IMG/VR virus record: IMGVR_UViG_3300032893_000082
Location: 1 to 47,795 of that record
Length of the DNA: 47,795 bases
From: a virus
Lineage: Duplodnaviria > Caudoviricetes
Direction: 5' to 3' (one strand)
Under the pieces are notes generated by a model. The model was not told where the DNA came from. It did no database searches and saw only the letters and a list, made by a program, of their open reading frames with translations. Below are positions 1,631 to 47,795 of this stretch, in pieces. Positions within the stretch are counted from its first letter, which is position 1, and each line of letters starts with the position of its first letter. The translations under genes and the position numbers were made by a program.

Positions 1631-1963
1631 ATGGCTAGCCTATATGTCACCGAGTACCAAGGAGTAGGTCAAGTAGATCCCGATTCTACTGATGGAAACA
1701 CCTCTTTCAAGGTTACCGCCCAAGCTCCTAAAGGACCTTCTCTAGCAGAGCAGAAGATTACTATTTCGGGAGTTACTACCCAGTCCGCAGCGTTCAATAG
1801 ACTTACCCGGCTTATCCGGGTACACACCGATGTGGTGTGCTCCGTAGCTGTAGGTGGGGCTAACCCCTCCGCTACGACTTCCAGTGCTCGCCTAGCGGCT
1901 AACCAGACAGAGTACTTCTCCGTGGATCCGGGGGATAAGATCGCTGTCATCTCCAATTCGTAA
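1631..1963 (+). CDS. Putative virion structural protein (small beta-sandwich)
   Basis: GAGG SD; beta-rich sequence (TRLIRVHTDVVCSVAVG...EYFSVDPGDKIAVI). Confidence 0.7.
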   Translation: MASLYVTEYQGVGQVDPDSTDGNTSFKVTAQAPKGPSLAEQKITISGVTTQSAAFNRLTRLIRVHTDVVCSVAVGGANPSATTSSARLAANQTEYFSVDPGDKIAVISNS

Positions 1964-1967
1964 ACCT

Positions 1968-3893
1968 TTGCCACCTAGATACATAGCGGTTCCTTTTCTT
2001 ACCGGCGGGACAGTTTTGCCTATAGGCACCCCCGTCCTTACAGCTACCGTTATCTCTAGTACCCAGATTAACCTAGCTTTAGCTTACTCTGGCCCTCCAG
2101 GAGCTATATCCTTTGCTTTTGAAGTGGCTCCCGCCCTTAACGGGCCTTTCGTCCCTCTCTCCTCCGGTAGTTCTTCCACGTATCCCTATACCGGACTATC
2201 CCAGGCTACCACCTATTACTTCAGAGGTAGAGTACAGGTCAACGACGGTAGATTTTCAGCTTACTCCAATACAGCTACTGCCACTACCCTCGCCGGAGTA
2301 CCTGCTCAACCCACAAACCTGGTTACAGGTTCGGTAACTACTACTACCATTAATCTTTCCTGGTCGGCGGCACTTAACGCTACTTCGTACAATATTTATC
2401 GGGATGGGTCGGTCGTGGGGTCCTCCAGCTCCACGACCTTTCAAGATTCTGGTCTGTCACCGGGTACTGTTCACCAGTACCAAGTCTCGGGGGTCAACTC
2501 TGCAGGGGAGGGTCCCCTGTCCAATACAGCGACAGGGACTACCTCGACCCCCACCAATACTGGGCACCAAATGGTGTTCACTCCGGGTGTCCACGCTATA
2601 GTGGGTAATATTGGAGGACAGTACAGCTCAGTAACTTCGGCTATGTCTGACTGGCAACCCCCCATGACCGCAGTAGCAACCAAGAACACCTCTAAGATAA
2701 TCAAAGGGTTCTGCGTAGTTCTCAACTGGCCTTTGTTGATGCAATCCACAGGTACCGTCACCAAAGGCGGACCGACAGCACTATCCCAAGGGCTTATATC
2801 GGTAGCTAATGGCGTTTCGTTCCTTACCCAGCTCTACAATTTCATTAAAACCCTTCCCAACGGTCCGTACACTCTTTCCATAGAGGTTAACTCCGTTGGA
2901 AATACGCTTAACTCCGCCGGAGCTGGATCTGCTACTGTCAACGCTCCTGCGTGGTGGATCGATAACACTACGTACGGTCCCGTCACCGCGGCTTCCGGGG
3001 CTACCGGACAGCATGGAGGATTATGGTACGGTAACACTACAGGTGCCTCCGGGCTATTTCTCCGTATCGATAACGCCAACGTCTTGAACGAAATGCGGTA
3101 CTGCTTGGTTAATCTGCAGAACCAGCTAGACGCTAGTGGTATCCATCTCGAGTCCATTAACCCGTTCCAAGAACTTAGTTTAGGCGGTGTTTCTGCCGTT
3201 CAGTGCGGCATCTCTAACGCTTCCTTCATAGCGGCTATGGGAGGTACGACCGGAATTCCTAACGGGTTCGCTGCCGATCTTCGCGGAGGTATCCCGAATA
3301 GCTTGCTACAAATAATGCCCACTTTCGCTAACGGTTCCGGCAATCCTGGAGGTCACGACGCTACCGCCCAACTAGTGGGGATTTTCTGCCGAAACTTCTG
3401 GAGTATTGCTCCGTTCGACGGCTCGAATCTTACTAATCCCTCCGACTACGCGGCTGCCGGCAAACAAGCTAAAACCAAGGCAGACTGGGGTCAACAAGCG
3501 TTCTGTGGCCAATCAGCTACCAACGGACCTATCGTTTACACCAACTATAAAGCTCTGGGTTATAATTCTCACCACCACACTGTGGCGGATGAGTTAGGTG
3601 GTTCGTTCATCCTAGGGTATGACGCCGTAGTGCCTCCCGCAGGAGAAGGTAACGGTAGATTACCCGACATTCTCTCTGGAGCTTCCTACACAGGAGCATC
3701 GCACTTCTTTGTGTGGATGCAGAACTTCACAGGTCCCAATTGCAACTGTTACGCTCCAAACGCAGGAGCCCCTGCCAACTACCCGTATCCTTTGAACGGT
3801 CCGACAGTACCGTACCAGAACATCGTAGACTCCTTGGCGGGGTTTAACGCCAACTCGTATCTCAATCTCAATTACCCGACGGCGTTCCCTTAA
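1968..3893 (+). CDS. Virion accessory protein: two FN3 domains plus a C-terminal putative glycoside-hydrolase-like domain
   Basis: FN3 motifs (GLSQATTYYFRGR; PAQPTNL...LSWSA...YNIYRDG...GLSPGTVHQYQVSGVN) followed by a ~440-aa alpha/beta domain. Confidence 0.7.
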   Translation: MPPRYIAVPFLTGGTVLPIGTPVLTATVISSTQINLALAYSGPPGAISFAFEVAPALNGPFVPLSSGSSSTYPYTGLSQATTYYFRGRVQVNDGRFSAYSNTATATTLAGVPAQPTNLVTGSVTTTTINLSWSAALNATSYNIYRDGSVVGSSSSTTFQDSGLSPGTVHQYQVSGVNSAGEGPLSNTATGTTSTPTNTGHQMVFTPGVHAIVGNIGGQYSSVTSAMSDWQPPMTAVATKNTSKIIKGFCVVLNWPLLMQSTGTVTKGGPTALSQGLISVANGVSFLTQLYNFIKTLPNGPYTLSIEVNSVGNTLNSAGAGSATVNAPAWWIDNTTYGPVTAASGATGQHGGLWYGNTTGASGLFLRIDNANVLNEMRYCLVNLQNQLDASGIHLESINPFQELSLGGVSAVQCGISNASFIAAMGGTTGIPNGFAADLRGGIPNSLLQIMPTFANGSGNPGGHDATAQLVGIFCRNFWSIAPFDGSNLTNPSDYAAAGKQAKTKADWGQQAFCGQSATNGPIVYTNYKALGYNSHHHTVADELGGSFILGYDAVVPPAGEGNGRLPDILSGASYTGASHFFVWMQNFTGPNCNCYAPNAGAPANYPYPLNGPTVPYQNIVDSLAGFNANSYLNLNYPTAFP

Positions 3894-3931: not shown

Positions 3932-4666
3932 ATGACCTGGGCTTACCAATCAACGACAGCTACTCAAAGTGGATCTGGAACCGTGGCGGTTACTTATCCT
4001 GCCGGTATTCAAGTTGGCGACACAGTTCTGTTGATGTGCGCTTTGGGTTTCGGTGCCGGCAAGACCTTCACAGCATCAGATTTCACTCCCTTAGTTAGCA
4101 GGAACACTAACAACTCTTCGGCTATTCTCTATAGAGTAGTGGATGGCACAGAGGGAGCTACCTCCAACGTATCTAATAGTGGAGGAAACAATTGCTCCTA
4201 CGCTATGGCCAGGTTTACTGGAGGTCCTACTAACGCCGCTAATTTTGCTTCCTCTATAGTAGCTACTAATAGTCGAGGATCGTCTGGTAGTGCTGGGTTA
4301 AGTTGGCCGAATTTAACAATCGGCAACAACAACAATTGTCTAGTAGTTACACTAGGCACCAAACAAGCTACCCTCACAAGCTTTGATGTCCCTGCTCTGT
4401 GGACTGGGGAACTTACCCACTCTACGGGCTCTGACGGAGGCCGTTCCTTCGTCTGGGATTATCTAATACAGAACACTGCGGCAGATATAACGTCTGCTGG
4501 CTGGACGGTTGGGGGCGATTCTTCTGCTGCCAACCAGGCTATTATCGCGGCCATTTTACCGGCCGCGGCCCCACCTCCCTCTGGTGGTGGAGGTACGGGA
4601 AGCACAGCCTTCCCCCCACCGAAGCGTAAAACTTACGTCTTCTATGATCTCTACTACCCTAGATAG
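3932..4666 (+). CDS. Putative virion accessory/fibre protein
   Basis: T/S/G-rich; VTYPAGIQVGDTVLL motif; Pro/Gly linker and basic C-terminal tail. Confidence 0.7.
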   Translation: MTWAYQSTTATQSGSGTVAVTYPAGIQVGDTVLLMCALGFGAGKTFTASDFTPLVSRNTNNSSAILYRVVDGTEGATSNVSNSGGNNCSYAMARFTGGPTNAANFASSIVATNSRGSSGSAGLSWPNLTIGNNNNCLVVTLGTKQATLTSFDVPALWTGELTHSTGSDGGRSFVWDYLIQNTAADITSAGWTVGGDSSAANQAIIAAILPAAAPPPSGGGGTGSTAFPPPKRKTYVFYDLYYPR

Positions 4667-15884: not shown

Positions 15885-15906
15885 TAGTCGCTATTGTCGG
15901 TGCATA

Positions 15907-16671
15907 ATGGCAAGAACCTATCTACAGCTAGTTAACGACGTGCTCGTACGTCTACGGGAGTCTCAGGTAACCACTGTGACTCAGACGCCCTATTCTACTC
16001 TGATAGGGGCTCTTGTCAATGACGCAAAACGGGAAGTCGAGGATGCTTGGCAGTGGTCACAACTCCTCGACTACCTAACCTTTAATTGCATCGTAGGGAT
16101 AACTTCCTATGAAACTAATACGATGCTTACTAGGTACGCTGCTCCGCCTCTTAGTGCCAGTGCTGGTGCTGGTGAGCGTGCTCGCTTGTGGCTTGATCCT
16201 ATTGAGCAAGTACCTTTGCTATTTAATACGACGGCTACTTATGAGACTAGATTAAAGTACGAACCTACTTTGTACGATTGGGTGACTAAGGTACAGCTAC
16301 AGAATCAACCTCAGCAACGCCCTCCTTCAGTGTGGCAATTGTCCCAGTCTACGTTCTACGCCCAAGCAGGAATGTGGAATAAAGCAGTACAACTATGGGC
16401 TGCTCCTGATGGAACGTACACGATGCAACTGTATATAGTCAACCCTCAAGACGACTTAGTTAACGATACAGATGTTATGAAAATACCTACCGCTCCAGTA
16501 CTGCAAAGAGCCTATCTGTACGCTCTCTACGAACGTGGAGAGGAGCTGGGCGAGGCCATTACCCTCACAGCAGAGAAAGTAGAAAATACCCAAGCGGATG
16601 CCATTACCCAAGATCAAGCTCAGCAGATGCTACACACCAGCTTGATTATCCCTTACGGATCTAAGTACTAG
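15907..16671 (+). CDS. Head-tail adaptor / tail tubular protein A
   Basis: TYLQLVNDVLVRLRE...VNDAKREVEDAWQW; follows the capsid gene. Confidence 0.8.
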   Translation: MARTYLQLVNDVLVRLRESQVTTVTQTPYSTLIGALVNDAKREVEDAWQWSQLLDYLTFNCIVGITSYETNTMLTRYAAPPLSASAGAGERARLWLDPIEQVPLLFNTTATYETRLKYEPTLYDWVTKVQLQNQPQQRPPSVWQLSQSTFYAQAGMWNKAVQLWAAPDGTYTMQLYIVNPQDDLVNDTDVMKIPTAPVLQRAYLYALYERGEELGEAITLTAEKVENTQADAITQDQAQQMLHTSLIIPYGSKY

Positions 16672-25150: not shown

Positions 25151-25528
25151 TCAATCCTCTACTGCGTTCGCTAGTTCTTCTTGATACCATTTACGCACCT
25201 TTTCGTGATCCAGGTGCCAAATCCACAATTGAATCCTGTTTCCTGATCTTGGATTTACCTCTATTGGGGTAGCATACAAACAAGCATCACCGAAGAGTTG
25301 GCGAATCCCATCTGCCATTTTTACTCCTCTCTTCTCCTCCCCATCCACTACATCAGAGAAAATAACGAAAGCAGCGGGCCGAGGATTGGCTTTGTGATAA
25401 AGCGCAGTAGCTACTGCGAATATATTCTTAGTTGCTGTCGTTTTTGGTAAGTGGTGCGCTTCTAGGACACCGCAAGAAACGAAAGACTTGTCGAATCTCA
25501 TCTGTTTCGAATTAATATACTCACCCAT
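25151..25528 (-). CDS. Uncharacterised protein, C/D/N-motif family paralogue A
   Basis: AGAGGTGA SD; KSFVSCG...FVIFSD...VNPRSGNRIQLWIW. Confidence 0.75.
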   Translation of the reverse strand: MGEYINSKQMRFDKSFVSCGVLEAHHLPKTTATKNIFAVATALYHKANPRPAAFVIFSDVVDGEEKRGVKMADGIRQLFGDACLYATPIEVNPRSGNRIQLWIWHLDHEKVRKWYQEELANAVED

Positions 25529-25542
25529 AAATCACCTCTTTT

Positions 25543-25905
25543 ATGTCTGAACTACTTGAACTACAATTTAAATTCGCGAAACTAGTGCCTAGGCTTATTG
25601 ATCAAGCCTACGCTCTAGGACTCTCCGTAACTCTCGGTGAAATCTATCGTACACCTCAACAAGCTCTATATAATGAGAGAGCAGGGGCAGGCATTGCACA
25701 CTCTCTGCATACCCTTCGCCTAGCAATAGACCTACAACTTTTCCGAAATGGTCAATATTTAACGAGCACAGAAGATTATTTGCCTCTGGGAGAGTTTTGG
25801 GAAGCGCTGGGGAAGCAGGAGGGACTACTTCTGTGTTGGGGTGGTCGGTTCGAGTCACGACCAGATGGTAACCATTTTTCGCTGAGTTATCAGGGCGTTC
25901 GGTAG
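25543..25905 (+). CDS. Endolysin, M15-family peptidase
   Basis: GEIYRTPQQ, SLHTLRLAIDL, WGGRF...DGNHFS Zn-peptidase motifs. Confidence 0.9.
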   Translation: MSELLELQFKFAKLVPRLIDQAYALGLSVTLGEIYRTPQQALYNERAGAGIAHSLHTLRLAIDLQLFRNGQYLTSTEDYLPLGEFWEALGKQEGLLLCWGGRFESRPDGNHFSLSYQGVR

Positions 25906-25996
25906 ATATTTCGAGATTTTGATATTGGTGCCCCGGTAAGTCTAGTCTGTAAATAGAGGGGCCTGACTTAAACCAAAGTTCCGCTTCAATCTTCAT
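25595..25996 (-). CDS. Hypothetical protein overlapping the endolysin antisense
   Basis: ATG overlaps upstream TGA (ATGA); GGAG upstream; fills the gap in the - operon. Confidence 0.55.
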   Translation of the reverse strand: MKIEAELWFKSGPSIYRLDLPGHQYQNLEISTERPDNSAKNGYHLVVTRTDHPNTEVVPPASPALPKTLPEANNLLCSLNIDHFGKVVGLLLGEGYAESVQCLPLLSHYIELVEVYDRFHRELRRVLERRLDQ

Positions 25997-26400
25997 GATG
26001 TAAGTTCTCCGATGTTGCCATCTCCGGAGCTTGCTTCGGCTGCTGTGTAGACTCCGGTTTCGGCATTAAGCACGACGGGATTTGGATCTGCTGTTGCTGC
26101 CTCAATAGGAGGCACAGAGATTTGAGCGATAAACGATTCCGCTTTCTTCCGTTCTTCATTTTTCTTTTCTTCATCATCCAACCGCTCTATAGCTGCTTTC
26201 ACTAAAGCCCTAGCATCCGATCTGCTAAGAGACTGCCAAGGATCAACAAGAGTTTGAGCAGTAAATCCGTCCTTTGCTCCCAGTAACTCGAACTGGACGT
26301 AATACTTAATGTCCACACGCACATCATCGCGTTGCGCCTCGTGCACGAGGTGTTTCAGAAGTCGTTCCAGGTCTCGACGATCTACTAAAGTAATTCCCAT
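25993..26400 (-). CDS. Hypothetical protein
   Basis: GAGGA SD; starts 1 nt after the upstream stop. Confidence 0.7.
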   Translation of the reverse strand: MGITLVDRRDLERLLKHLVHEAQRDDVRVDIKYYVQFELLGAKDGFTAQTLVDPWQSLSRSDARALVKAAIERLDDEEKKNEERKKAESFIAQISVPPIEAATADPNPVVLNAETGVYTAAEASSGDGNIGELTS

Positions 26401-26401
26401 A

Positions 26402-26686
26402 CTATTCCTCTGAGTTTCTTTTATTGAAGGCTCGAGTTAATTTAACTGCGTCTAAAGAACACCTCCCAGGGACTTTTTTCATCTGGCGTTCAGCAACCCA
26501 AGCTACTCTATTAACCACTCTACCGTTCTTGGTTGGATATACTGCATACTCAGAACGTGAGTGCTTGTCGGCTCCTCCATACAGATCTGAGTATGTCCCT
26601 TCAATGATTACCAGATCTCCCTTCTTGACATCCTCACCCCAATCTTCAACCATTATTGCCCAATCATAGGGCCGGAATTTATCCAT
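26402..26686 (-). CDS. Hypothetical protein (possibly SH3-like fold)
   Basis: GGAG SD; KKGDLVIIEG...AWVAERQM. Confidence 0.65.
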   Translation of the reverse strand: MDKFRPYDWAIMVEDWGEDVKKGDLVIIEGTYSDLYGGADKHSRSEYAVYPTKNGRVVNRVAWVAERQMKKVPGRCSLDAVKLTRAFNKRNSEE

Positions 26687-27143
26687 GGGCGTACTCCAAG
26701 ATATAGGTCAAGCAGTAGGCACGGCAGCGGGGGCTGCTACCGGTTCGTGGCTCACCCCCGTGCTGAATATTATCAATAAGGTTATACCTGACCCTCAGGC
26801 AAAGGTGCAAGCCCAAATACAGCTCCTCCAACTTCAGCAATCTGGGGAGCTTGCTCAAGAGGCTTCGGCACTTCAGGTAGCGCTGGCGAATAGCCAGGTA
26901 AATCTCGCTGAAGCCCAGTCTGCCTCAAGTTTTCGAGCCGGGTGGCGACCTGCTGCAGGGTGGCTAAGTGTTGCCGGATTAGGCTACCAGTATCTCGGAC
27001 AGCCTCTGTTATCCTGGATAGCTGCTCTAGGGCATTTTCCATCTCCCCCTGTTCTTGATGGATCGACTTTGTTAGCCCTTTTAACTGGGCTTCTAGGGCT
27101 TGGTACTCATCGGACAATTGAGAAACTGAACGGGTTGGCCTAA
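26685..27143 (+). CDS. Holin, 3TM (GTA-type) family
   Basis: INKVIPDP...VNLAEAQS...AGWRPAAGW...LLGLGTHRTIEK signature. Confidence 0.88.
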   Translation: MGVLQDIGQAVGTAAGAATGSWLTPVLNIINKVIPDPQAKVQAQIQLLQLQQSGELAQEASALQVALANSQVNLAEAQSASSFRAGWRPAAGWLSVAGLGYQYLGQPLLSWIAALGHFPSPPVLDGSTLLALLTGLLGLGTHRTIEKLNGLA

Positions 27144-27276
27144 TCCACGGCGTTTTTTGTACTTTTTCCATAGCGAGTTGCACCTCCTGTTGATAATTAG
27201 CAGCAAGTTCCTGATTAACAAAAGCGTTCTGTAAATTTACGTTAAGCTGATTTAGATATTCATTAATATTAGGCAT
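26782..27276 (-). CDS. Coiled-coil protein overlapping the holin antisense
   Basis: TAAGGA SD; first 44 codons lie outside the holin; heptad pattern continues through the overlap. Confidence 0.6.
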   Translation of the reverse strand: MPNINEYLNQLNVNLQNAFVNQELAANYQQEVQLAMEKVQKTPWIRPTRSVSQLSDEYQALEAQLKGLTKSIHQEQGEMENALEQLSRITEAVRDTGSLIRQHLATLQQVATRLENLRQTGLQRDLPGYSPALPEVPKPLEQAPQIAEVGGAVFGLAPLPEGQV

Positions 27277-27295
27277 TCCGTGTCCTTAGACGATT

Positions 27296-27326
27296 AGGGC
27301 CGCTTATTGCGGCCCTTTTCTTTTTT
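27296..27326 (+). terminator. Intrinsic terminator ending the late/lysis transcript
   Basis: AGGGCCGC-TTATT-GCGGCCCT followed by TTTCTTTTTT. Confidence 0.8.
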
Positions 27327-27516
27327 GTAGTATTTCTTTTGCTCTAGCGGACATTACAGTTCTAGCGGGGTCTGGTAGGAACTCGGTAGCCCACTTCTTG
27401 GCTACCGCCGCTCCTTGGTCCCTGTACAACCTTATGTATCGTCTAGCCCACTTGTCTACTAATTTCGGATGGAGTTCGACTAGCTCCCCGCCCTTACGCT
27501 GGGCCGAGGCCACCAC
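27304..27516 (-). CDS. Hypothetical basic protein
   Basis: GGAG upstream; overlaps the end of the exonuclease gene. Confidence 0.6.
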   Translation of the reverse strand: MVASAQRKGGELVELHPKLVDKWARRYIRLYRDQGAAVAKKWATEFLPDPARTVMSARAKEILQKRKGPQ

Positions 27517-28258
27517 TCTTCTCCAGCTTAATTAGCTTGTCTTCCTTGTAAGGAGTACTGGACCATTTACCACACTTCTTGCACCACAACCGCTGCCTTA
27601 CAGAAGCAGGAGTAGTATAAGTCCCGCGGCGCTGCAAATGGCGACTACCGCATACCGGGCACGATTCACTAGATCTCCCTCCACCCAACAATCCAATATG
27701 AGGGTGAGCAACAACGAGAGGACGCAAACTAAGATAGTTTTTTGCGAGAATGATAGCATCTTTGTCGCAGTGCTCCGCTATGTACTGAATTGACGGCTTA
27801 TGGCCTCCTGCAGCTTTGATCCAGGTGGGTAGCTGTAGTGGGGTTTTATCGCCATGTCCCAAGAGATCGGAAACCACTTGAAGCCGGTTTGAGTGCAGCT
27901 TAAGGCGCCTTTTGGCAGTATCGTAGAGATCGATATGAGGCACGTTTTCGAGGTGGTCAATTTTTTGCTTTTTACCTCTCCAGAACACAATGCGAGTATT
28001 GAGAAAAGGAAGATCAAAGCGCTTGCCGTAGTAAGTAACCCAGGTGTCGGCTTCACCGAGGGTTCCCACAAGATCCCGTACAAGGTCCCTATCATGCCAA
28101 GGGTCATCAGCCCAACCAGCATAATCGTCAACACGGAAACTCCTATACACCTTAGTAGGTGTGGCTACGTCAACAATTGAGGCGGCTATAATGAAGCCGC
28201 CGTTAGCGTTTAAACTACTTGTTTCTAGGTCCCAGCAAAGTATCTTTGGCTTTACCAT
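27494..28258 (-). CDS. DEDD/RNase H-like 3'-5' exonuclease with C-terminal zinc ribbon
   Basis: WDLET, YYGKRFDLPF, HIDLY, HCDKD; CPVC...CKKC. Confidence 0.85.
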   Translation of the reverse strand: MVKPKILCWDLETSSLNANGGFIIAASIVDVATPTKVYRSFRVDDYAGWADDPWHDRDLVRDLVGTLGEADTWVTYYGKRFDLPFLNTRIVFWRGKKQKIDHLENVPHIDLYDTAKRRLKLHSNRLQVVSDLLGHGDKTPLQLPTWIKAAGGHKPSIQYIAEHCDKDAIILAKNYLSLRPLVVAHPHIGLLGGGRSSESCPVCGSRHLQRRGTYTTPASVRQRLWCKKCGKWSSTPYKEDKLIKLEKSGGLGPA

Positions 28259-36199: not shown

Positions 36200-36805
36200 T
36201 TAGGCGATTCCTAGGGTCGTAAGTTCGTGTTTAAGGATTGGTGAATGGGCATAGTTTTTCGCGATTGCGGAAAGGGACACTTTCATCCCCGGAGTAACGG
36301 AAGCCTTGTCGAAACAGATATCCTTAGCTATAGAGGGCAACACCAAAGTCCATATTCGACTAGGCTTGGAGGGTCCATAGTACCGATTCGGTAGAATCGG
36401 ACTCTTGAGTACCACTACCCCGAACTTGGGCTCCGTCTCGAACACCTCTATCAGTCCTTTCCAGTGATTGTACCAAGTAAAGGACTTGTTCATGTGAATT
36501 GCATCACAGTAAATAAGTACGCCAGGAGGGTACACGCCGCTATCCAAGGGAAAGAAGGGGCACCCGTCCTTAAGGGCCTTGAACGTGGCCCTCTGATTAA
36601 GATCTTCCAAATAATTGAAGATGATCGCGTCTCTGATCTTAGGATCTTCCAGTTCCTTAGCGATTACCCCCGACCCAACATCTACGGGGTCGTCCCCGTT
36701 GTTCACGTGAAGCTGCAACCGCCCTACGGTTTTGTTGCCGCAATTGTACTCTCCATAGAGAGCACTAAGCCATACGTTGTATTTGCCTACTTTATGTTTA
36801 TTCAC
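36200..36805 (-). CDS. Uncharacterised protein, C/D/N-motif family paralogue D
   Basis: EYNCG...VLIYCD...KGL...PNRYYG...RIWTL; coupled to the ATP-grasp gene. Confidence 0.75.
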   Translation of the reverse strand: MNKHKVGKYNVWLSALYGEYNCGNKTVGRLQLHVNNGDDPVDVGSGVIAKELEDPKIRDAIIFNYLEDLNQRATFKALKDGCPFFPLDSGVYPPGVLIYCDAIHMNKSFTWYNHWKGLIEVFETEPKFGVVVLKSPILPNRYYGPSKPSRIWTLVLPSIAKDICFDKASVTPGMKVSLSAIAKNYAHSPILKHELTTLGIA

Positions 36806-37593
36806 AATTTATTCCTTGTAATCAGTTCGCCCAGATGTGTAATATAAAACGCCAAACATTGGCCTTCCAGGCCCGGTGCTGTGTTTATCTCCCCCACCAG
36901 CATCTTCTTGTCGTTAAACATTATATCCACCGCTCCATACGCCAACCCGCAAGCGTGCATAGCTTTCGCTGCGAGCGCAACAGCCGCCAAGTTTGTGCTA
37001 ACGTTACGCTTGAAGATCCACCCCTTATCGTAGGTTCGGATATAAGTCTCCGGCGTGCCCTCCAAATTGAACTCCTCCCACCGACCCTCGAGAACCCGGC
37101 CCTTCTCAAGATAAAGGGAGCGGTATTTTCCATCAGCTCCCTGGATGCAGTGCACACGGCACTCAGTCTTTTTTGGAAAGTACTTAGTGTAGAGATGGAT
37201 GTCTTCCCTGGTGATCTGTCCCCCTTTCTTGAAGAGTTCGAGACCTTGTGCAGAGTGGGCGTGTAGATTGAAGTGCCCGACCACCGAAGACGTAGTGAGC
37301 CATTCCAAAGCTTCTCCACGCTTAAGTGTGTATTCAAGGGTCGGAATCTCTTTCTCATGCAACCTCTTTAAACAATTAAGTTTATTGGCTGCCACAGCAA
37401 CAGCGGAACACGGATTAAGTATCTTAGGTCCGGCTCCTAGAACCTTGGTACACCCCCAATTGACAATTAATCCCACCTTGTTCTTTGCTTTGTCCATTTC
37501 CCACTCGGCAGGTGTACGTCGAATGAGATTCAAGTTCTGACACAGCCGTCGAGGCGTTCCGCCTCTCCACGGCGAAAGAAGTACTGTCCTCAT
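36802..37593 (-). CDS. ATP-grasp ligase (RimK-like)
   Basis: IVNWG, AANKL, ECRVH, YGAVDI, EINTAPGL. Confidence 0.9.
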   Translation of the reverse strand: MRTVLLSPWRGGTPRRLCQNLNLIRRTPAEWEMDKAKNKVGLIVNWGCTKVLGAGPKILNPCSAVAVAANKLNCLKRLHEKEIPTLEYTLKRGEALEWLTTSSVVGHFNLHAHSAQGLELFKKGGQITREDIHLYTKYFPKKTECRVHCIQGADGKYRSLYLEKGRVLEGRWEEFNLEGTPETYIRTYDKGWIFKRNVSTNLAAVALAAKAMHACGLAYGAVDIMFNDKKMLVGEINTAPGLEGQCLAFYITHLGELITRNKL

Positions 37594-39236
37594 GTTCCTA
37601 CCTTTTTCATGACTATTGGGTCATGAACACAGCATTCGCATATCATCTGATACTCTGCATCGAGTGGGTTATGATCCTCGGGGGGTAGCGGGAACTCCCA
37701 CCACTCCACTCGTCCGATGTCTTCGGCTGTGATCATTCCTTTACACCCGACACACCCTTTTGACGCCACCTCGCGCCACTCACGATACGTAATCTTTTGT
37801 CCTGCGGGGCCTGGGACTAGATCAGTAAGCGCCCTTTCTACCCGCAGATTATCCCCTCCTCGTCGTTCGGCTCCAGATCCAACGGGTGTCCCGTTGTTGG
37901 GTCCCACCCCCACGGAACTCCCTCCTCCTTCGGTCTTTCCCACACTGCTGGTCGTGCTAGACGAATGGGTAACAAGGGGAAGGGACCCCCTATCGAGAGT
38001 TTTACAACTCTCGCAAGCACAGACGTATGAGTGGCCGTTGGGCCGCTTCAAATACTTGTCTTTTTCCGCCAATCGTCGTTTCTGGTCTTGAATTTCCTTG
38101 GCAGCATCCGCTTCTTCTAATCTCACTTCGTAGAAAGCGTACTTCTGCCCGGTATCTGGATCAATCTCATCCCGTGTAAGGTTAATAATTCTGCACGGCA
38201 AAGAGTGAGCAATTAAGTGAGTCTTCTCGTTCCAATCCTTCCAGTGAAGCCCCACTATTCGAACCTTTGAGCCCTTTTCCATAGAGCGTGTGCCATAAGC
38301 GAACCCGTAGGCATGCTGCTCGAGAGTCTCATTCTCCCCGGTTCCGATAGGCTTGTAGAGATTGACTGCGCTCTTAGCGTCTCCTGGTACGCTAACCCAG
38401 ATACAGTCTCCTTTTCCAGGGAACTGCTTAGTGTAGTCTTTCCACCGTTGTTGACTGTTTCCGTAAAGCCCGCCGTTCTCGTTTTGATAACTTGCGGCGG
38501 GCAGGAATTTTTTTTCTTCGTACTTCGTCTTCATGGCTTTAAGAACTTTCTTAGTCAGATCCCACTGATACAAAGTTAAGGTGTCCAATTGCCAAAACTC
38601 GTTCACGTGGGGTATGTTATTCCGACGTAGGAGGCTTACCAGCATGTCCATTTCGGAAGCGAAGTAAAGTATCGTCTGCTCCTTGTTAAGGGCGTAATAA
38701 AGCTCTCGTTCGACATTACGAGCCATGTTAAGCATCTTGGTGCGAGTGTCGTACCAGATAAGAACGTACGCTCCTTCAATAGATTCCAGAGTAGCCAACG
38801 CCCCCTTTTCGAGTAGTGCGTGGGCAGCGTGCGCCGAATCCACTGGGTGAGTAAATCCCGGTGGAGTAAGTGTCAAATAATTCCTGATGTGTCCATTATG
38901 GATCATCAGTACAGAATCTCCAGCAGCATTGGTAAATCTGAACGGGTGGGCGTTTTTGGTAGATACCGTACCAATGGTTGCTGACCTGGTGTGCCCGAGT
39001 ACGGCACGTGAGGAGAAAAGGTTCTTTCCTACCCAATCCCATTCATCGGAGCACACAAAATTGGGCGCCGGAATATGGGACTTGGCAAGATCCGTATCGA
39101 ATTCCTTGTGGACAAGACCGACTCCTGTACCCCCCATGCCACGCAACGCGGACATGTAGAGTCCTTGGACCATGAAATTGTCGATCTTTGTAAAATAAGC
39201 ATCGTCTGCTCTAAATGCTCCAATTAACCCGCACAT
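37590..39236 (-). CDS. Class II glutamine amidotransferase with C-terminal extension
   Basis: N-terminal MCGL (Cys nucleophile), LRG, GHTRSAT, NAHPF, HNG, VDS, FASE. Confidence 0.92.
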   Translation of the reverse strand: MCGLIGAFRADDAYFTKIDNFMVQGLYMSALRGMGGTGVGLVHKEFDTDLAKSHIPAPNFVCSDEWDWVGKNLFSSRAVLGHTRSATIGTVSTKNAHPFRFTNAAGDSVLMIHNGHIRNYLTLTPPGFTHPVDSAHAAHALLEKGALATLESIEGAYVLIWYDTRTKMLNMARNVERELYYALNKEQTILYFASEMDMLVSLLRRNNIPHVNEFWQLDTLTLYQWDLTKKVLKAMKTKYEEKKFLPAASYQNENGGLYGNSQQRWKDYTKQFPGKGDCIWVSVPGDAKSAVNLYKPIGTGENETLEQHAYGFAYGTRSMEKGSKVRIVGLHWKDWNEKTHLIAHSLPCRIINLTRDEIDPDTGQKYAFYEVRLEEADAAKEIQDQKRRLAEKDKYLKRPNGHSYVCACESCKTLDRGSLPLVTHSSSTTSSVGKTEGGGSSVGVGPNNGTPVGSGAERRGGDNLRVERALTDLVPGPAGQKITYREWREVASKGCVGCKGMITAEDIGRVEWWEFPLPPEDHNPLDAEYQMICECCVHDPIVMKKVGT

Positions 39237-39252
39237 TTTTATTTGTTTCCTC

Positions 39253-40209
39253 TTACGCGGCTACATATTGGTAAAGGGTTTCAAGTCCGTTCCAATAGTC
39301 CGCTTCTGAATTGCGAGACATGCGGACAGCATCTCTGTAGTGAGACTTGAAAACTTCGACTAAAAACTGTTCTGGTTTTTTATGGTTGCAGTAATCAATG
39401 ACCTTATCTGGAGTCATGGGGTGCTCTTGGCACCACTGCTTGATCCTCATAATTAGGTTGATCCACGTGATTATAGCATCACGTTGCATGGTTACACGGC
39501 CGTGCCTAAATTCTAGCGTGCCGAAATCTCCTAAAGAAAAACAGTTCAATCCAGCGTACTTATTAGCTTGTTTACCTATCTTAAACCCAGCCACTGCGCT
39601 CGAACTTTCTGGTACGTGGTATTTACGTATGCAATCCTTAAAAGCTTCGAAGTGCTGTGGGTGCTTGTACCACGGGATACAGTAATTGGATAGATGGCGA
39701 CCTCCTCCTACGTATTGATAAAGAAATGGCTCAACTACGCAATAAACAGCTCCGAACTGGTGTACATCGTCGGGGAACGTCGCATCTCGCATGTCTAAGT
39801 GAACGTGCAAAGAAGTACGATAAGATCCTTCAAAACCCAGGACACGAGCACAATCATCCATAGCGTCAATAGCTTTGAGTAATTTGGAGCCGCTATACGG
39901 AGCCTTAAAATTGAACTCCAATCCCTCCCCCCGCAGACTGTGGTCTACGTGGTGATTATAGTATTTACACACCTCCGTAATTACCGCCATGTGCGTAGTC
40001 CCTTGAAGTAGCGGGTTTGGTGCAACAGCCCCTGGGGGCAGTTCCGGGTTAACCGCCAAATTCAAATACGGATTGTCGTTTTTAGGGAATCGCTTCGTCT
40101 TTTCCCATTCGTACTCCAGTCCTATTGCGTTACGCGGAAGACAAAAGTCAGGTACGGGCTGCTCTTGAACTTGATCGTCAGCCGCATTTATTAGATTGCG
40201 TACTTTCAT
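39253..40209 (-). CDS. Putative amidoligase (Amidoligase_2-like)
   Basis: IGLEYE, DHSLR, GLE, LHVHLD, NYC, KYAGLN, GTLEFR. Confidence 0.88.
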   Translation of the reverse strand: MKVRNLINAADDQVQEQPVPDFCLPRNAIGLEYEWEKTKRFPKNDNPYLNLAVNPELPPGAVAPNPLLQGTTHMAVITEVCKYYNHHVDHSLRGEGLEFNFKAPYSGSKLLKAIDAMDDCARVLGFEGSYRTSLHVHLDMRDATFPDDVHQFGAVYCVVEPFLYQYVGGGRHLSNYCIPWYKHPQHFEAFKDCIRKYHVPESSSAVAGFKIGKQANKYAGLNCFSLGDFGTLEFRHGRVTMQRDAIITWINLIMRIKQWCQEHPMTPDKVIDYCNHKKPEQFLVEVFKSHYRDAVRMSRNSEADYWNGLETLYQYVAA

Positions 40210-41111
40210 ATTGCGTCATTAAACCCCATATTATGCAATTCGTAGTGCGGCATAAGATTTTGTGCCCCAGGGTAGCCCCCTCGATACGTAAGTATTGTGC
40301 CGTGGTGCGGACTCCCCGGCCAAACATACAGCACGGAATACCAACGAGAGTTCAACCAATACCCAGGATGGTACCCCTTTATGTAATGAGGATTGGCTGC
40401 CTGCGGAATGATGGCAGAGGCGTCTTTAGCGTCTTTTTTCTCCTTTTGCTCTGAGATTAGTACATTTTCCGGCAGTACTCCAAGTTTTTGAAGTTTGTAC
40501 TTGAACGGTGCTGCCCAAGGGTACAGCTCCACAACGCTCTCCACAACGCCCGGTGCCGTAACAAATTTCCCAATCGGTTCACTATGAAAATAGAGTAGAT
40601 TCGCCACACGATCTATTAAGAAATTCTCTCTCGTCCAGCACGCCAGTGGTCCTTCTCGCCACACGTCTACGAGAGCAGGCTTTACGTGGCGCATCCCATA
40701 CAATTCGCAAAAGGCTTGGCTTGCCGTCTCTTGTACTGTCCTGGCTGCTGGAGGAACATCTCCAAAGAATTTGACATCGTTAAATCTCCAAGGAAACGAT
40801 TTCCTCAAGTTTTTCTGCAACTTGTGTTTCCACAAAGCCGCACCGTGCTTATAATTGAACATGATGGGCTGCATGAGAATGATATCTAACGAAGTCCACC
40901 ATTCCTTGAGAGAAATGGTCTTATCTTTGAATTCTTTCTCACGAGTCAAGTATTGGCCAGATATTTTGTCCCCATCGCCCAGCCCTGATACCACGAACAA
41001 TCGTCGTTTTGTCGGGCTTATCCGCCACACCATTGCGGTGCTAGCGAAATAGTGATTGAAATCTTGAGGAGTAACATCCTTGTAGGCTTCCCCACTAATT
41101 GTTGTTATCAT
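40206..41111 (-). CDS. Hypothetical protein inside the ligase operon
   Basis: 301 aa; ATGA-coupled to the amidoligase. Confidence 0.75.
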   Translation of the reverse strand: MITTISGEAYKDVTPQDFNHYFASTAMVWRISPTKRRLFVVSGLGDGDKISGQYLTREKEFKDKTISLKEWWTSLDIILMQPIMFNYKHGAALWKHKLQKNLRKSFPWRFNDVKFFGDVPPAARTVQETASQAFCELYGMRHVKPALVDVWREGPLACWTRENFLIDRVANLLYFHSEPIGKFVTAPGVVESVVELYPWAAPFKYKLQKLGVLPENVLISEQKEKKDAKDASAIIPQAANPHYIKGYHPGYWLNSRWYSVLYVWPGSPHHGTILTYRGGYPGAQNLMPHYELHNMGFNDAI

Positions 41112-41117
41112 GGTTGC

Positions 41118-42074
41118 TTACTTCCCTAAGGAAAGGTTTCCCGCTTTAATGGCTGCTCTGTTAGCACTCAACTGCTTGCGTTCACTCACCCAACGAGCAA
41201 GAGCATCTGTACACACACTGTAGTGATTCCGATAATTATAAAATGACTCAGGCCCAGCCAGAGCAGTTATTTCAGAAGCAACCTGATCGATGTTAGAGGT
41301 CTTCAAGAACATTTTTATCGCGTCGTTCACACGAGCGCCATGTTGGTCATAATCGAAACAAGTAGCTAAACGATCCATAGTCCAATCGAAAGATGAGATG
41401 ATACCTTTATGATACTCCTTTGCGTCCGGAGAAAGTTTACTAATGCGAGCGGCATTACACCAAGAGTTATCAGGGGATCGGTGTTCAATTCCGTACTCGG
41501 TTTCCCTATAAAGTCCAGGGTGGCCGTAAAACTTCCAGCGGCTCTTATCTGCATAGTATCTACTCCAAGGTAGTACAAAGAGTAGATCTATAAATTTCAC
41601 CAAATTGATTTTCTCCAACCCTTCGGGCCATGGGTTGATACCTACGTGCACGTGCCCCCCAGCAAAGCGCATGTTCTGGAATTTGCTGATCGAGGGAGCT
41701 AACCTAAGTCCGTACGCAAACATGTCAGGGGAACATCCGATATTCATAGCTTCGCTGTATTTACTCAATTCTTCTTGAGGATAGACAGCAGAACTATTCG
41801 GAAGGAATTCGTATTCTTGAAATTTATTCAAGAATACGAGTTGTAAATTCAACAACTTCTTCAAGGTGTCTTTAAGAGATGAGGAAGGAGTAACGTTGAA
41901 CTCAACTGTAACCCCATCTTCAAGAAACCCTCCGTCTGGACTCAAAAACATGGGGGCTCTTTTTTCGCCCCCAAATTTGTGACACGCCACCACCGCCTGG
42001 TGTGTCTTTTTATCGGCTACTATAAATTCAGGATCAGCACCGATAGTTATCTTGTATCTCTTATTATTAGACAT
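41118..42074 (-). CDS. COOH-NH2 ligase type 2 (phiEco32-like)
   Basis: TIGADPEF, EDGVTVEFN, GCSPD, RFAGGHVHVG, YG-x-x-G-x-YR, YGIEHRSPDN. Confidence 0.9.
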   Translation of the reverse strand: MSNNKRYKITIGADPEFIVADKKTHQAVVACHKFGGEKRAPMFLSPDGGFLEDGVTVEFNVTPSSSLKDTLKKLLNLQLVFLNKFQEYEFLPNSSAVYPQEELSKYSEAMNIGCSPDMFAYGLRLAPSISKFQNMRFAGGHVHVGINPWPEGLEKINLVKFIDLLFVLPWSRYYADKSRWKFYGHPGLYRETEYGIEHRSPDNSWCNAARISKLSPDAKEYHKGIISSFDWTMDRLATCFDYDQHGARVNDAIKMFLKTSNIDQVASEITALAGPESFYNYRNHYSVCTDALARWVSERKQLSANRAAIKAGNLSLGK

Positions 42075-46945: not shown

Positions 46946-47495
46946 GAACGGCAGAGCGTTACGCTCGACCCCAACAGGCTGGCTGCTGGTACTCTTATCA
47001 GACAACGGCCGTACGTGATAGTTCAATCTTCCCCGCTGTTTTGGATGTCCCAGATATCTATATATCTAGATCTATACGCATCTGGGATATCTAGGTTATG
47101 TAAACTGGATCACTAGGCTAGCACGAAGGCACAACTCACACGCTACTTGAGCGCTTCAGCGAAAATCCCGCGAAGATCATATCGCATAATAGATCTGATA
47201 TATCGCTTGAAAGCGCCTCGCGAAGCCACCGGGGGCCCTCCTAAGAAATTACTAGATGGAGACGTAGCAGATTTTCGAACGGGGGGAGAAAAATAGGAAG
47301 GTGGGTAAATATAGGGTCCTATAAGCCGACGGAGGAGGTACCCTATGGTAGGGTAGAGGGTCTAGCCTCCTATCCCCTGTAATCCCCTTACGGAGGCTCC
47401 TAGAGCCCAAGGGAGGTACGACCGAGAGTAAGGGGATCCGATCCCATCTACCTAGGTATTTACAGACGATATTCAGGATTATTGATAAATATCTC

Positions 47496-47523
47496 TTGAC
47501 AAATTAGAAATCTATGATACCCT
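47496..47523 (+). promoter_or_regulatory. Putative sigma70-type promoter upstream of the AT-rich tract
   Basis: TTGACA-16 bp-TACCCT with extended TG; same CTTGACAAAT start as the promoter at 130. Confidence 0.5.
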
Positions 47524-47704
47524 AAGAATATATATAAATATATAAATATATAAATATATATATAAATTAATATAAATAAATATAAATATATATATAAATA
47601 TATATAAATATATATAAATATATATATAAATATATATAATATTAAGAATATATACAAGAATAAGAATATATAAGAATATATAAGAATTAAGATAAGAATA
47701 TAAG
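47523..47704. repeat. AT-rich low-complexity tandem array (TATAAATA / TAAGAATATA units)
   Basis: ~180 bp of almost only A/T in a genome of roughly balanced composition. Confidence 0.9.
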
Positions 47705-47795
47705 GGGGACCTTGGGGTCCCCTCCCAGAGAACACCTGTACAAAAATTTAAATATGTACTACTCACAAAGTTCTTGACAAATCTCTAAACTTCTG
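47635..47795. repeat. Right copy of terminal direct repeat
   Basis: Matches 1-151 with a 10-nt insertion. Confidence 0.9.

Follow-up and report, generated by a model that had tools for sequence, protein, structure and literature searches.

Whether long stretches of DNA in prokaryotes and their phages code on both strands is a matter of dispute, in large part because it is difficult to demonstrate selection on the second frame, and it has been argued that long antiparallel ORFs are not essential (bioRxiv 10.1101/724807). Among the closest described cases are olg1/tle3 and olg2/PA1383 of Pseudomonas aeruginosa, long, taxonomically restricted antisense ORFs on older genes, for which stop depletion, synonymous constraint and proteomic support are described, the dNN/dNS of olg1 being given as non-significant (PMC8850804). 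In HIV-1, ASP is a de novo antisense ORF on an older viral membrane-protein gene, env (PMC8227390, PMC7457138, PMC8781085), and is itself described as a transmembrane protein (PMC8227390, PMC7457138). Opposite-strand genes are interleaved within one transcribed region in the noncontiguous ith-1/tha-1 operon of the temperate S. aureus phage 80alpha, which is presented in terms of life-cycle switching and of an antisense gene that inhibits a defence RNase (PMC11087260, PMC11034616). Finally, lysis genes compressed into shared DNA are exemplified by E of phiX174 (PMC8227390), by Rz/Rz1 and by the dual-start antiholin of lambda (PMC3091744); in all of them the overlapping genes share a strand, and the new frame of the E overlap is the lysis gene itself. 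A literature search that covered titles and the beginnings of abstracts, with most subscription journals and supplements outside its scope, found no gene overprinted antisense on a holin.

The locus described here is a probable case of this kind. The window, which is the whole virus record of 47,795 bases, encodes virion proteins (terminase, SU10-like portal, capsid) rightward and, in a leftward block, amidoligase-type enzymes, primase, helicase, PolA, exonucleases and endonuclease I. Cultured phages are distant, the best matches to the DnaQ-like exonuclease showing less than 30% identity. Elsewhere in the record, a minus-strand cluster at 36802-42074 (a sub-threshold COOH-NH2 ligase-like protein, an amidoligase, a glutamine amidotransferase and a further possible ligase) resembles that of phiEco32-like phages, a family label that comes from Pfam, and an AT-rich, low-complexity tract near the contig end (~47460-47766), with spurious Ile/Tyr-rich ORFs, may be an origin or an assembly feature. 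Around the holin gene, the features are the following.

25151..25528, minus strand: 125-aa leftward ORF, the final one in the leftward series, ahead of the late structural genes
25543..25905, plus strand: endolysin, Peptidase_M15_4 (PF13539), no Shine-Dalgarno (SD) motif
25595..25996, minus strand: ORF133, a second antisense ORF, its start overlapping the upstream stop (ATGA)
25993..26400, minus strand: 135-aa leftward ORF between holin and endolysin, with homologues in the L001, L158 and L244 contigs
26402..26686, minus strand: 94-aa leftward ORF with a GGAG SD motif in the first holin codons, no family match
26684..26687, both strands: CATG common to the holin start (plus) and a minus-strand ATG; CATG stands at the holin start in four of four genomes
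26685..27143, plus strand: holin, 152 aa, PF11351 GTA_holin_3TM / phrog_3427 (80.9 bits, cut-off 24.8)
26782..27276, minus strand: ORF164, putative antisense overprinted gene, 164 aa, ATG start, from the program's ORF list
26782..26904, minus strand: residues 125-164 of ORF164 and its stop, overlapped, unconstrained, predicted disordered tail
26905..27126, minus strand: residues 51-124 of ORF164, predicted single long helix (AlphaFold and alignment)
27144..27276, minus strand: non-overlapping N-terminal segment of ORF164, 44 codons, rich in A, P, N and Q, with a Met-Pro start
27283..27288, minus strand: SD motif TAAGGA, 6 nt 5' of the ORF164 ATG, read from the sequence
27296..27326, plus strand: hairpin and U tract resembling an intrinsic terminator, on the holin strand beyond the antisense SD motif, with a counterpart in four of four genomes
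27304..27516, minus strand: 70-aa leftward ORF directly upstream of ORF164, 54-59% identity in two relatives
27494..28258, minus strand: DnaQ-like exonuclease of the leftward replication operon

The original prediction, a 164-aa ORF that starts outside the holin behind a TAAGGA motif and then overlaps it antisense for 362 nt, is borne out: positions 26782-27143 are shared with the holin (26685..27143), and 44 codons of ORF164 lie outside. The claimed facing of the codons, position 1 against position 1 and position 2 against the wobble base of the other gene, likewise agrees with the offset of 1 mod 3, by which antisense position 1 faces holin position 1, position 2 faces 3 and position 3 faces 2. 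By our mapping this phase is frame 2 of PMC11266595, a paper in which another frame is found to be favored. In 13 of 13 ordinary genes of the window it is, of the three phases, the one with the most antisense stops, and no open run in this phase is longer than 97 codons there. With the holin protein and the codon usage of the genome taken as given, the window's frame would remain open over codons 34-152 with a probability of 0.0075; the probabilities of an open frame in relatives are 0.004 and 0.0012. The stop codon of ORF164 is spelled by holin codons 33-34. At the other end, an SD-like motif precedes the antisense ORF in all four genomes that carry it (the window, L001, L158 and L244), and in the latter three the SD motif or the start overlaps the stop of the upstream gene.

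These observations bear on the possibility that ORF164 is a shadow ORF, open antisense by chance or codon bias and picked up by gene callers. The holin region has a GC content near 50%, the phase is the most stop-rich one, the probability of an open frame is 0.001-0.008 per holin in three genomes, and starts, SD motifs and the heptad pattern described below are all conserved, which argues against such an origin; in its favor can be cited one GC-rich outside holin (L382) with the same frame open, the fact that the Pfam matches of ORF164 are sub-threshold coiled-coil matches alone, and the absence of ORF164 from cultured phages. Taken together, this explanation appears largely refuted, and we assign it a very small residual probability.

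The distribution of the open frame points in the same direction. Three relatives with the locus in view were located without the antisense protein as query, L001 through its holin (75% identity), L158 through its endolysin (holin 53% identical) and L244 through PolA (holin 52%), and in all three the antisense frame is open and preceded by an SD-like motif, which makes four of four genomes with the window included. The L001 and L244 ORFs end at the same holin codons as that of the window, and the L158 ORF continues almost to the holin start. Stops in this frame within the holins of relatives, which the original prediction had named as grounds for abandoning it, are thus absent from the clade. 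The holin family is broad (1233 matches among 8000 scored), and the overlap is confined to one clade: outside it, all 78 other viral holins have the frame closed, as do 69 of 69 outside holins (151 loci reduced at 80% identity), with 1-12 stops each, and all 73 metagenome holins long enough to score, out of 75, these three sets overlapping one another. In the last scan of viral holins (8 of 64 parts), 3 of 79 were open, namely those of the L001 and L244 contigs and of L382, the sole outside holin with the frame open, which is very GC-rich and non-homologous.

In the outgroup phages L277, L302 and L258 (PolA identity 40-44%) the holin, encoded on the late strand, is shorter, and its antisense frame contains 9, 9 and 7 stops, respectively; compared with these three, the holins of the window clade have an N-terminal extension of 14-16 residues; in L277 the holin is the last late gene and faces the exonuclease. 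In a holin tree that took in 30 of the 69 outside holins, the four overlap-bearing holins and 16 holins known as protein only are separated from 33 closed ones by a branch with 100/99 support. Because of this branch and of the closed frame in the outgroups, the data are compatible with a single origin of the overlap, and the holin is the older frame. The residue pair Phe-[IMTNK], which forces a stop in the antisense frame, occurs in none of the 20 clade holins and in 26 of the 33 others, at sites that are few and related by descent. Two clade holins known as protein only, P0047 and P0050, have an Asp at codon 126 that is incompatible with a hydrophobic residue at core site 72 of the antisense protein, and the antisense profile weakly matches the stop-interrupted shadow of the outside holin L354 (E 2.5e-5, in a small set).

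Further searches had a limited yield. L242 and L245, close by PolA, gave no holin match in their short loci; the metagenome scan (15 of 64 parts) contained no clade member; 60 candidate stretches of bacterial genomes included no relative; when the antisense alignments, the exonuclease and the 135-aa ORF served to scan viral contigs, those of L001 and L158 were the only ones retrieved; and no variants were seen among the contigs of two DNA runs. In the protein collection, the window's holin is missing from the holin match list and its antisense ORF is present, suggesting that gene callers appear to keep one of two overlapping genes per contig.

With ORF164 alone as query, a homologue search recovered the query itself and nothing else, and a two-sequence profile of the window and L001 proteins retrieved 13 proteins in the 90% collection and 43 among the 50% representatives. 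From these, 44 antisense proteins could be aligned, with 20-42% identity to the query, after P0036 had been swapped for the full L158 ORF and P0032 (448 aa, six matched stretches) dropped as a repeat artefact. Similarity to the proteins of the window and L001 was what brought these sequences together, and close relatives are among them, so the set is neither unbiased nor independent, and the heptad register used below was taken from it. The homologues start with Met-Pro in 37 cases, Met-Ala in 5 and Met-Ser in 2, for most of them outside the best-scoring stretch, and most end about 95 nt short of the holin start. Conservation of the first ~44 residues alone had been the other ground named for abandoning the original prediction; the reverse is found, this non-overlapping part being the least conserved and varying from 2 to 114 residues. 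ORF164 has no Pfam family above the cut-off, no PHROG match, no match among cultured phages or Foldseek viral folds and no meaningful match among PDB sequences; the atlas places it with unnamed viral clusters at 0.91, with low feature sharing, and returns nothing for ORF133.

The phase of the overlap allows selection on the antisense protein to be read off the holin gene. Each antisense residue, Ser excepted, reveals the wobble base of the facing holin codon, so the 44 proteins can be set against the 69 outside holins translated in antisense. Under residues 50-118, the chance-corrected agreement of wobble bases (kappa) is 0.40, compared with 0.07 in the outside holins; in bins matched for first-position agreement the values are 0.34-0.52 and 0.07-0.16. 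Recruitment by similarity alone does not explain this signal because the 20 weakest matches by themselves still give 0.39 vs 0.11. Under the tail (residues 119-160) kappa is 0.14 vs 0.11, so that within the overlap constraint is found for residues 50-118 and not for the C-terminal ~45 residues.

The wobble signal has a structural period. At the eight heptad core sites of ORF164 (residues 65, 72, 79, 86, 93, 100, 107 and 114), the holin wobble base is A, which gives a hydrophobic antisense residue, in 41, 42, 37, 41, 39, 40, 44 and 40 of the 44 proteins, compared with 7-17 of 63-69 outside holins; 39 of the 44 have I, L, V, M or F at 7-8 of the 8 sites, and no outside holin has more than 5 in the best of seven registers. 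The Fourier spectrum peaks at 3.5 residues, with a power of 1.84 vs 0.001. The peptide in which a heptad had been claimed corresponds to residues 54-93, and the pattern is conserved there at sites synonymous for the holin. Conservation extends to surface acids: E75 is found in 40 of 44 proteins, E/D78 and D/E95 in 42 each, and E91 in 43, under the invariant four-fold holin codon P107, whose wobble base varies outside the clade. In the four genomes available as DNA, A occupies 8, 8, 7 and 6 of the 8 core sites (L244 lacks two), with P = 2e-4 for L158 and 4e-3 for L244 when the holin sequence, stop avoidance and codon usage are allowed for; the outgroup L258 has 4 of 8 (P = 0.049). The caveat that the antisense of hydrophobic codons tends to give Q, K and E is answered by the phase itself, because the holin sets the antisense third base only, and the antisense middle base, which separates hydrophobic from charged residues, is the holin's free wobble base.

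Direct identity at four-fold sites on DNA is raised only modestly. Pooled over the four genomes it is 61/142 (0.43) in the coil, 29/89 (0.33) in the tail and 15/64 (0.23) outside the overlap, the L001-L244 pair standing at 4/25. Over holin codons 80-152 the window and L001 agree at 20/30 sites, compared with 0.41 in ordinary genes, and the window and L158 at 9/22 vs 0.34. Because eight sites spaced seven apart are hydrophobic, the wobble and heptad pattern indicates selection on the antisense protein sequence itself, beyond an open frame. Dual coding, as originally proposed, is supported by the conserved open frame, the start signals and the heptad at holin-synonymous sites, and it appears highly probable from these sequence patterns that ORF164 is a real protein-coding gene.

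Two ways of accounting for the same conservation without a functional protein have to be considered. Under the first, the frame is open merely because ribosomes must cover the leftward transcript against polarity, the protein sequence being irrelevant; Rho-dependent polarity is the background to this idea. Such a requirement would fit the free variation of the N-terminus, the tail that is overlapped and open yet unconstrained, the open antisense frames on both lysis genes and the fact that leftward ORFs cover 94% of positions 25151-28258. It fits poorly with the ~95-nt untranslated gap before the holin start in most homologues, and avoidance of stops cannot fix a wobble A at every seventh codon or a wobble T under P107, the core-site probabilities already excluding stop-making codons. 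Ribosome cover may explain the tail, not the coil, and as an explanation of ORF164 we regard it as quite improbable. Under the second, what is conserved would be an element acting as RNA or DNA within the holin gene, with the ORF as its by-product, given that any conserved nucleotide element depresses synonymous variation. The constraint, however, has a period of 21 nt and keeps a residue class rather than contiguous bases: I, L and V exchange along with changes in the neighboring holin codon, D and E exchange at positions 78 and 95, and the Met-Pro starts and SD motifs are found beyond the holin, at a distance from it that varies. This possibility is very slight.

What kind of protein would the selected frame encode? 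The AlphaFold model built from the 44 sequences has one 74-residue helix (residues 51-124), with pLDDT 94-98 over residues 61-120, a less certain N-terminal helix and a low-confidence tail. Hydrophobic residues account for 92% at heptad position d, 40% at a (where another 45% are small), 37% at g and 4-6% at b, e and f; across the family, residues 56-96 have a median charge of -6. By the core rules of coiled coils, an a/d/g core leads to a bundle rather than a plain dimer, and this is what the predicted coil of ORF164 suggests. No 19-residue stretch of ORF164 exceeds a hydropathy of 0.93, and no membrane segment was found; the maximum for the plus-strand holin is 1.49. A spanin role of the Rz/Rz1 type, in which Rz1 is nested in Rz, was considered and rejected, there being no N-terminal anchor (maximum hydropathy 0.93) and no Cys in the N-terminal segments of the family; nor did any spanin come to notice elsewhere in the window.

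An obvious candidate function is that of an antiholin: made earlier than the holin, ORF164 would bind its Gln/Leu-rich N-terminal region and delay triggering. This would be compatible with the location of ORF164 in the operon expected to be expressed first and with its persistence alongside the holin in four of four genomes, even in L244 where the endolysin has been replaced. Such co-inheritance is, however, forced by the overlap and uninformative on binding, and the unrelated antisense ORF on the endolysin, in the same phase, fits general overprinting by read-through. Moreover, ORF164 and the holin show no profile match, no antiholin-type similarity (dual-start or membrane) is present, and the putative antiholins of PMC3091744 either are membrane proteins or arise from dual starts, in contrast to ORF164, which has no hydrophobic segment. 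An antiholin role for ORF164 is in our view unlikely.

The second overlap concerns the endolysin gene (25543..25905), which ORF133 overlaps by 311 nt in the same phase as ORF164 on the holin. Counterparts of ORF133 lie at 2042-2491 in L001 and 4026-4454 in L158, with 37% identity across the three genomes, and the endolysin antisense frame is open in 2 of 80 endolysin loci (18 of them distinct), both from the clade, the L001 and L158 contigs. In this overlap the wobble base is shared at 14 four-fold sites; 9 of them have A, giving hydrophobic residues, mostly Leu, which is suggestive. Four-fold identity there is 0.45, for which the 0.48 of the outside endolysins, themselves close relatives of one another, gives no yardstick. 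For ORF133, the AlphaFold model built from three sequences is poor (mean pLDDT 52.6). L244 keeps the holin overlap and has a different endolysin with no matching antisense ORF; this unrelated replacement (15903-16379) overlaps its opposite-strand neighbor by ~95 nt at its 3' end.

Since the endolysin, too, has an antisense ORF in three genomes, both lysis genes would lie inside the leftward replication operon: leftward ORFs flank holin and endolysin on both sides, in the same order in L001 and L158. Between 25304 and 28600 no leftward terminator-like site was found, which fits one transcript and is no proof of it, and a promoter scan gave fewer sites than shuffled sequences. In the opposite direction, the terminator-like hairpin of the holin strand lies beyond the antisense start, and a late transcript would for this reason cover ORF164 and its SD motif entirely. 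Holin and endolysin have no clear SD motif in three genomes (positions 25520-25545 and 26660-26687 in the window), and the leftward genes have one, which makes leaderless or deliberately weak translation of the lysis genes possible; the missing motif is weak evidence because, in a scan of 32 starts, a score of 0 is shared by 6 other probable genes.

Several smaller observations concern the same region. The lysis-gene starts overlap or abut an opposite-strand ATG (CATG or CATATG) also at 3000-3003 and 2014-2019 in L001, at 4000-4003 and 4698-4701 in L158 and at 15615-15618 in L244, and at these starts the first holin or endolysin codons spell the SD motif of the opposite strand. In L158 and L244 the opposite ATG at lysis-gene starts opens a hydrophobic peptide of 25-28 aa; in L158 the minus-strand ATG of the CATG at the holin start is directly followed by a stop. 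L001 has a 63-aa leftward ORF (1854-2045, minus strand), with a hydrophobic N-terminus followed by Cys as in lipoproteins, that is coupled to the stop of the ORF antisense to the endolysin. The DnaQ-like exonuclease gene contains a same-strand ORF in an alternative frame, with hydrophobic stretches (27778-28134, minus strand, in the window; 4115-4450 in L001; 5684-6025 in L158), of 111-118 aa in three genomes and split in L244 (13947-14123 and 14130-14279), which could be another overprinted gene.

How might such an arrangement have come about? Ancestrally, the holin would have closed the late operon and faced the replication operon, as it does in outgroup phages. Leftward read-through could then have allowed a gene with a variable N-terminus to extend into the antisense frame of the holin. 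The new protein would be translated from the leftward replication operon before the holin is made, would form a soluble, oligomerizing coiled coil, and would bind a partner, of the phage or the host, through its conserved acidic face. We prefer a partner that is not the holin, since linkage follows from the overlap in any case and the endolysin is covered by a second, unrelated ORF. The leftward transcript that runs over the nested holin and endolysin would, in addition, probably damp their expression until the late promoter takes over. That ORF164 is a new gene is likely given the frame kept in four genomes and the heptad fixed in silent positions of the holin; the whole chain, comprising a de novo coiled-coil gene expressed from the leftward operon, a non-holin partner and transcriptional damping, we consider somewhat more probable than all else, with considerable room for doubt. 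A more elaborate proposition, that the lysis cassette carries its own opposite-strand brakes in the form of a coiled-coil antiholin, a second de novo protein and a silencing replication transcript, seems rather doubtful.

Selection on a second frame can be read here directly: a silent base of the holin is fixed every 21 nt and spells the core of a predicted coiled coil on the opposite strand. The phase affords no shadow protection, the unconstrained tail serves as an internal control, and the outgroups are devoid of the frame. ORF164 would thus be a clean and dated example of how a structured domain originates de novo. The locus also explains an annotation blind spot, in that such phages can seem to lack a holin because gene callers keep one of the two genes. 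Should the layout, or the ORF164 protein, set the time of lysis, this would be a new way of controlling the holin clock.

Comparison with the known systems shows what is shared and what is distinct. Like olg1 and olg2, ORF164 is a long antisense ORF of narrow taxonomic range that is depleted of stops, shows synonymous constraint and lies on an older gene; those two are bacterial, use another antisense frame and have proteomic support (PMC8850804), whereas ORF164 is a putative gene on a phage lysis gene and has a constraint with a structural period. With HIV-1 ASP it shares a probable de novo position antisense to an older viral membrane-protein gene, and it differs in being predicted soluble, no sequence relation being implied. 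The interleaving of opposite-strand genes recalls ith-1/tha-1, except that in the window a replication operon encloses two lysis genes, with dual coding over 362 and 311 nt, a comparison of gene layout alone. Lysis genes are compressed into shared DNA as in phiX174 and lambda, and the polarity of the innovation is the reverse of that in phiX174 E, the lysis genes of the window being the old frames and the new ones antisense. Other members of the GTA_holin_3TM family (PF11351, phrog_3427) have neither the open antisense frame nor the N-terminal extension that distinguishes the holins of the window clade from those of the three outgroups. Antisense overprinting as such is known; what is unusual here is the clear structural signature and the cover of both lysis genes.
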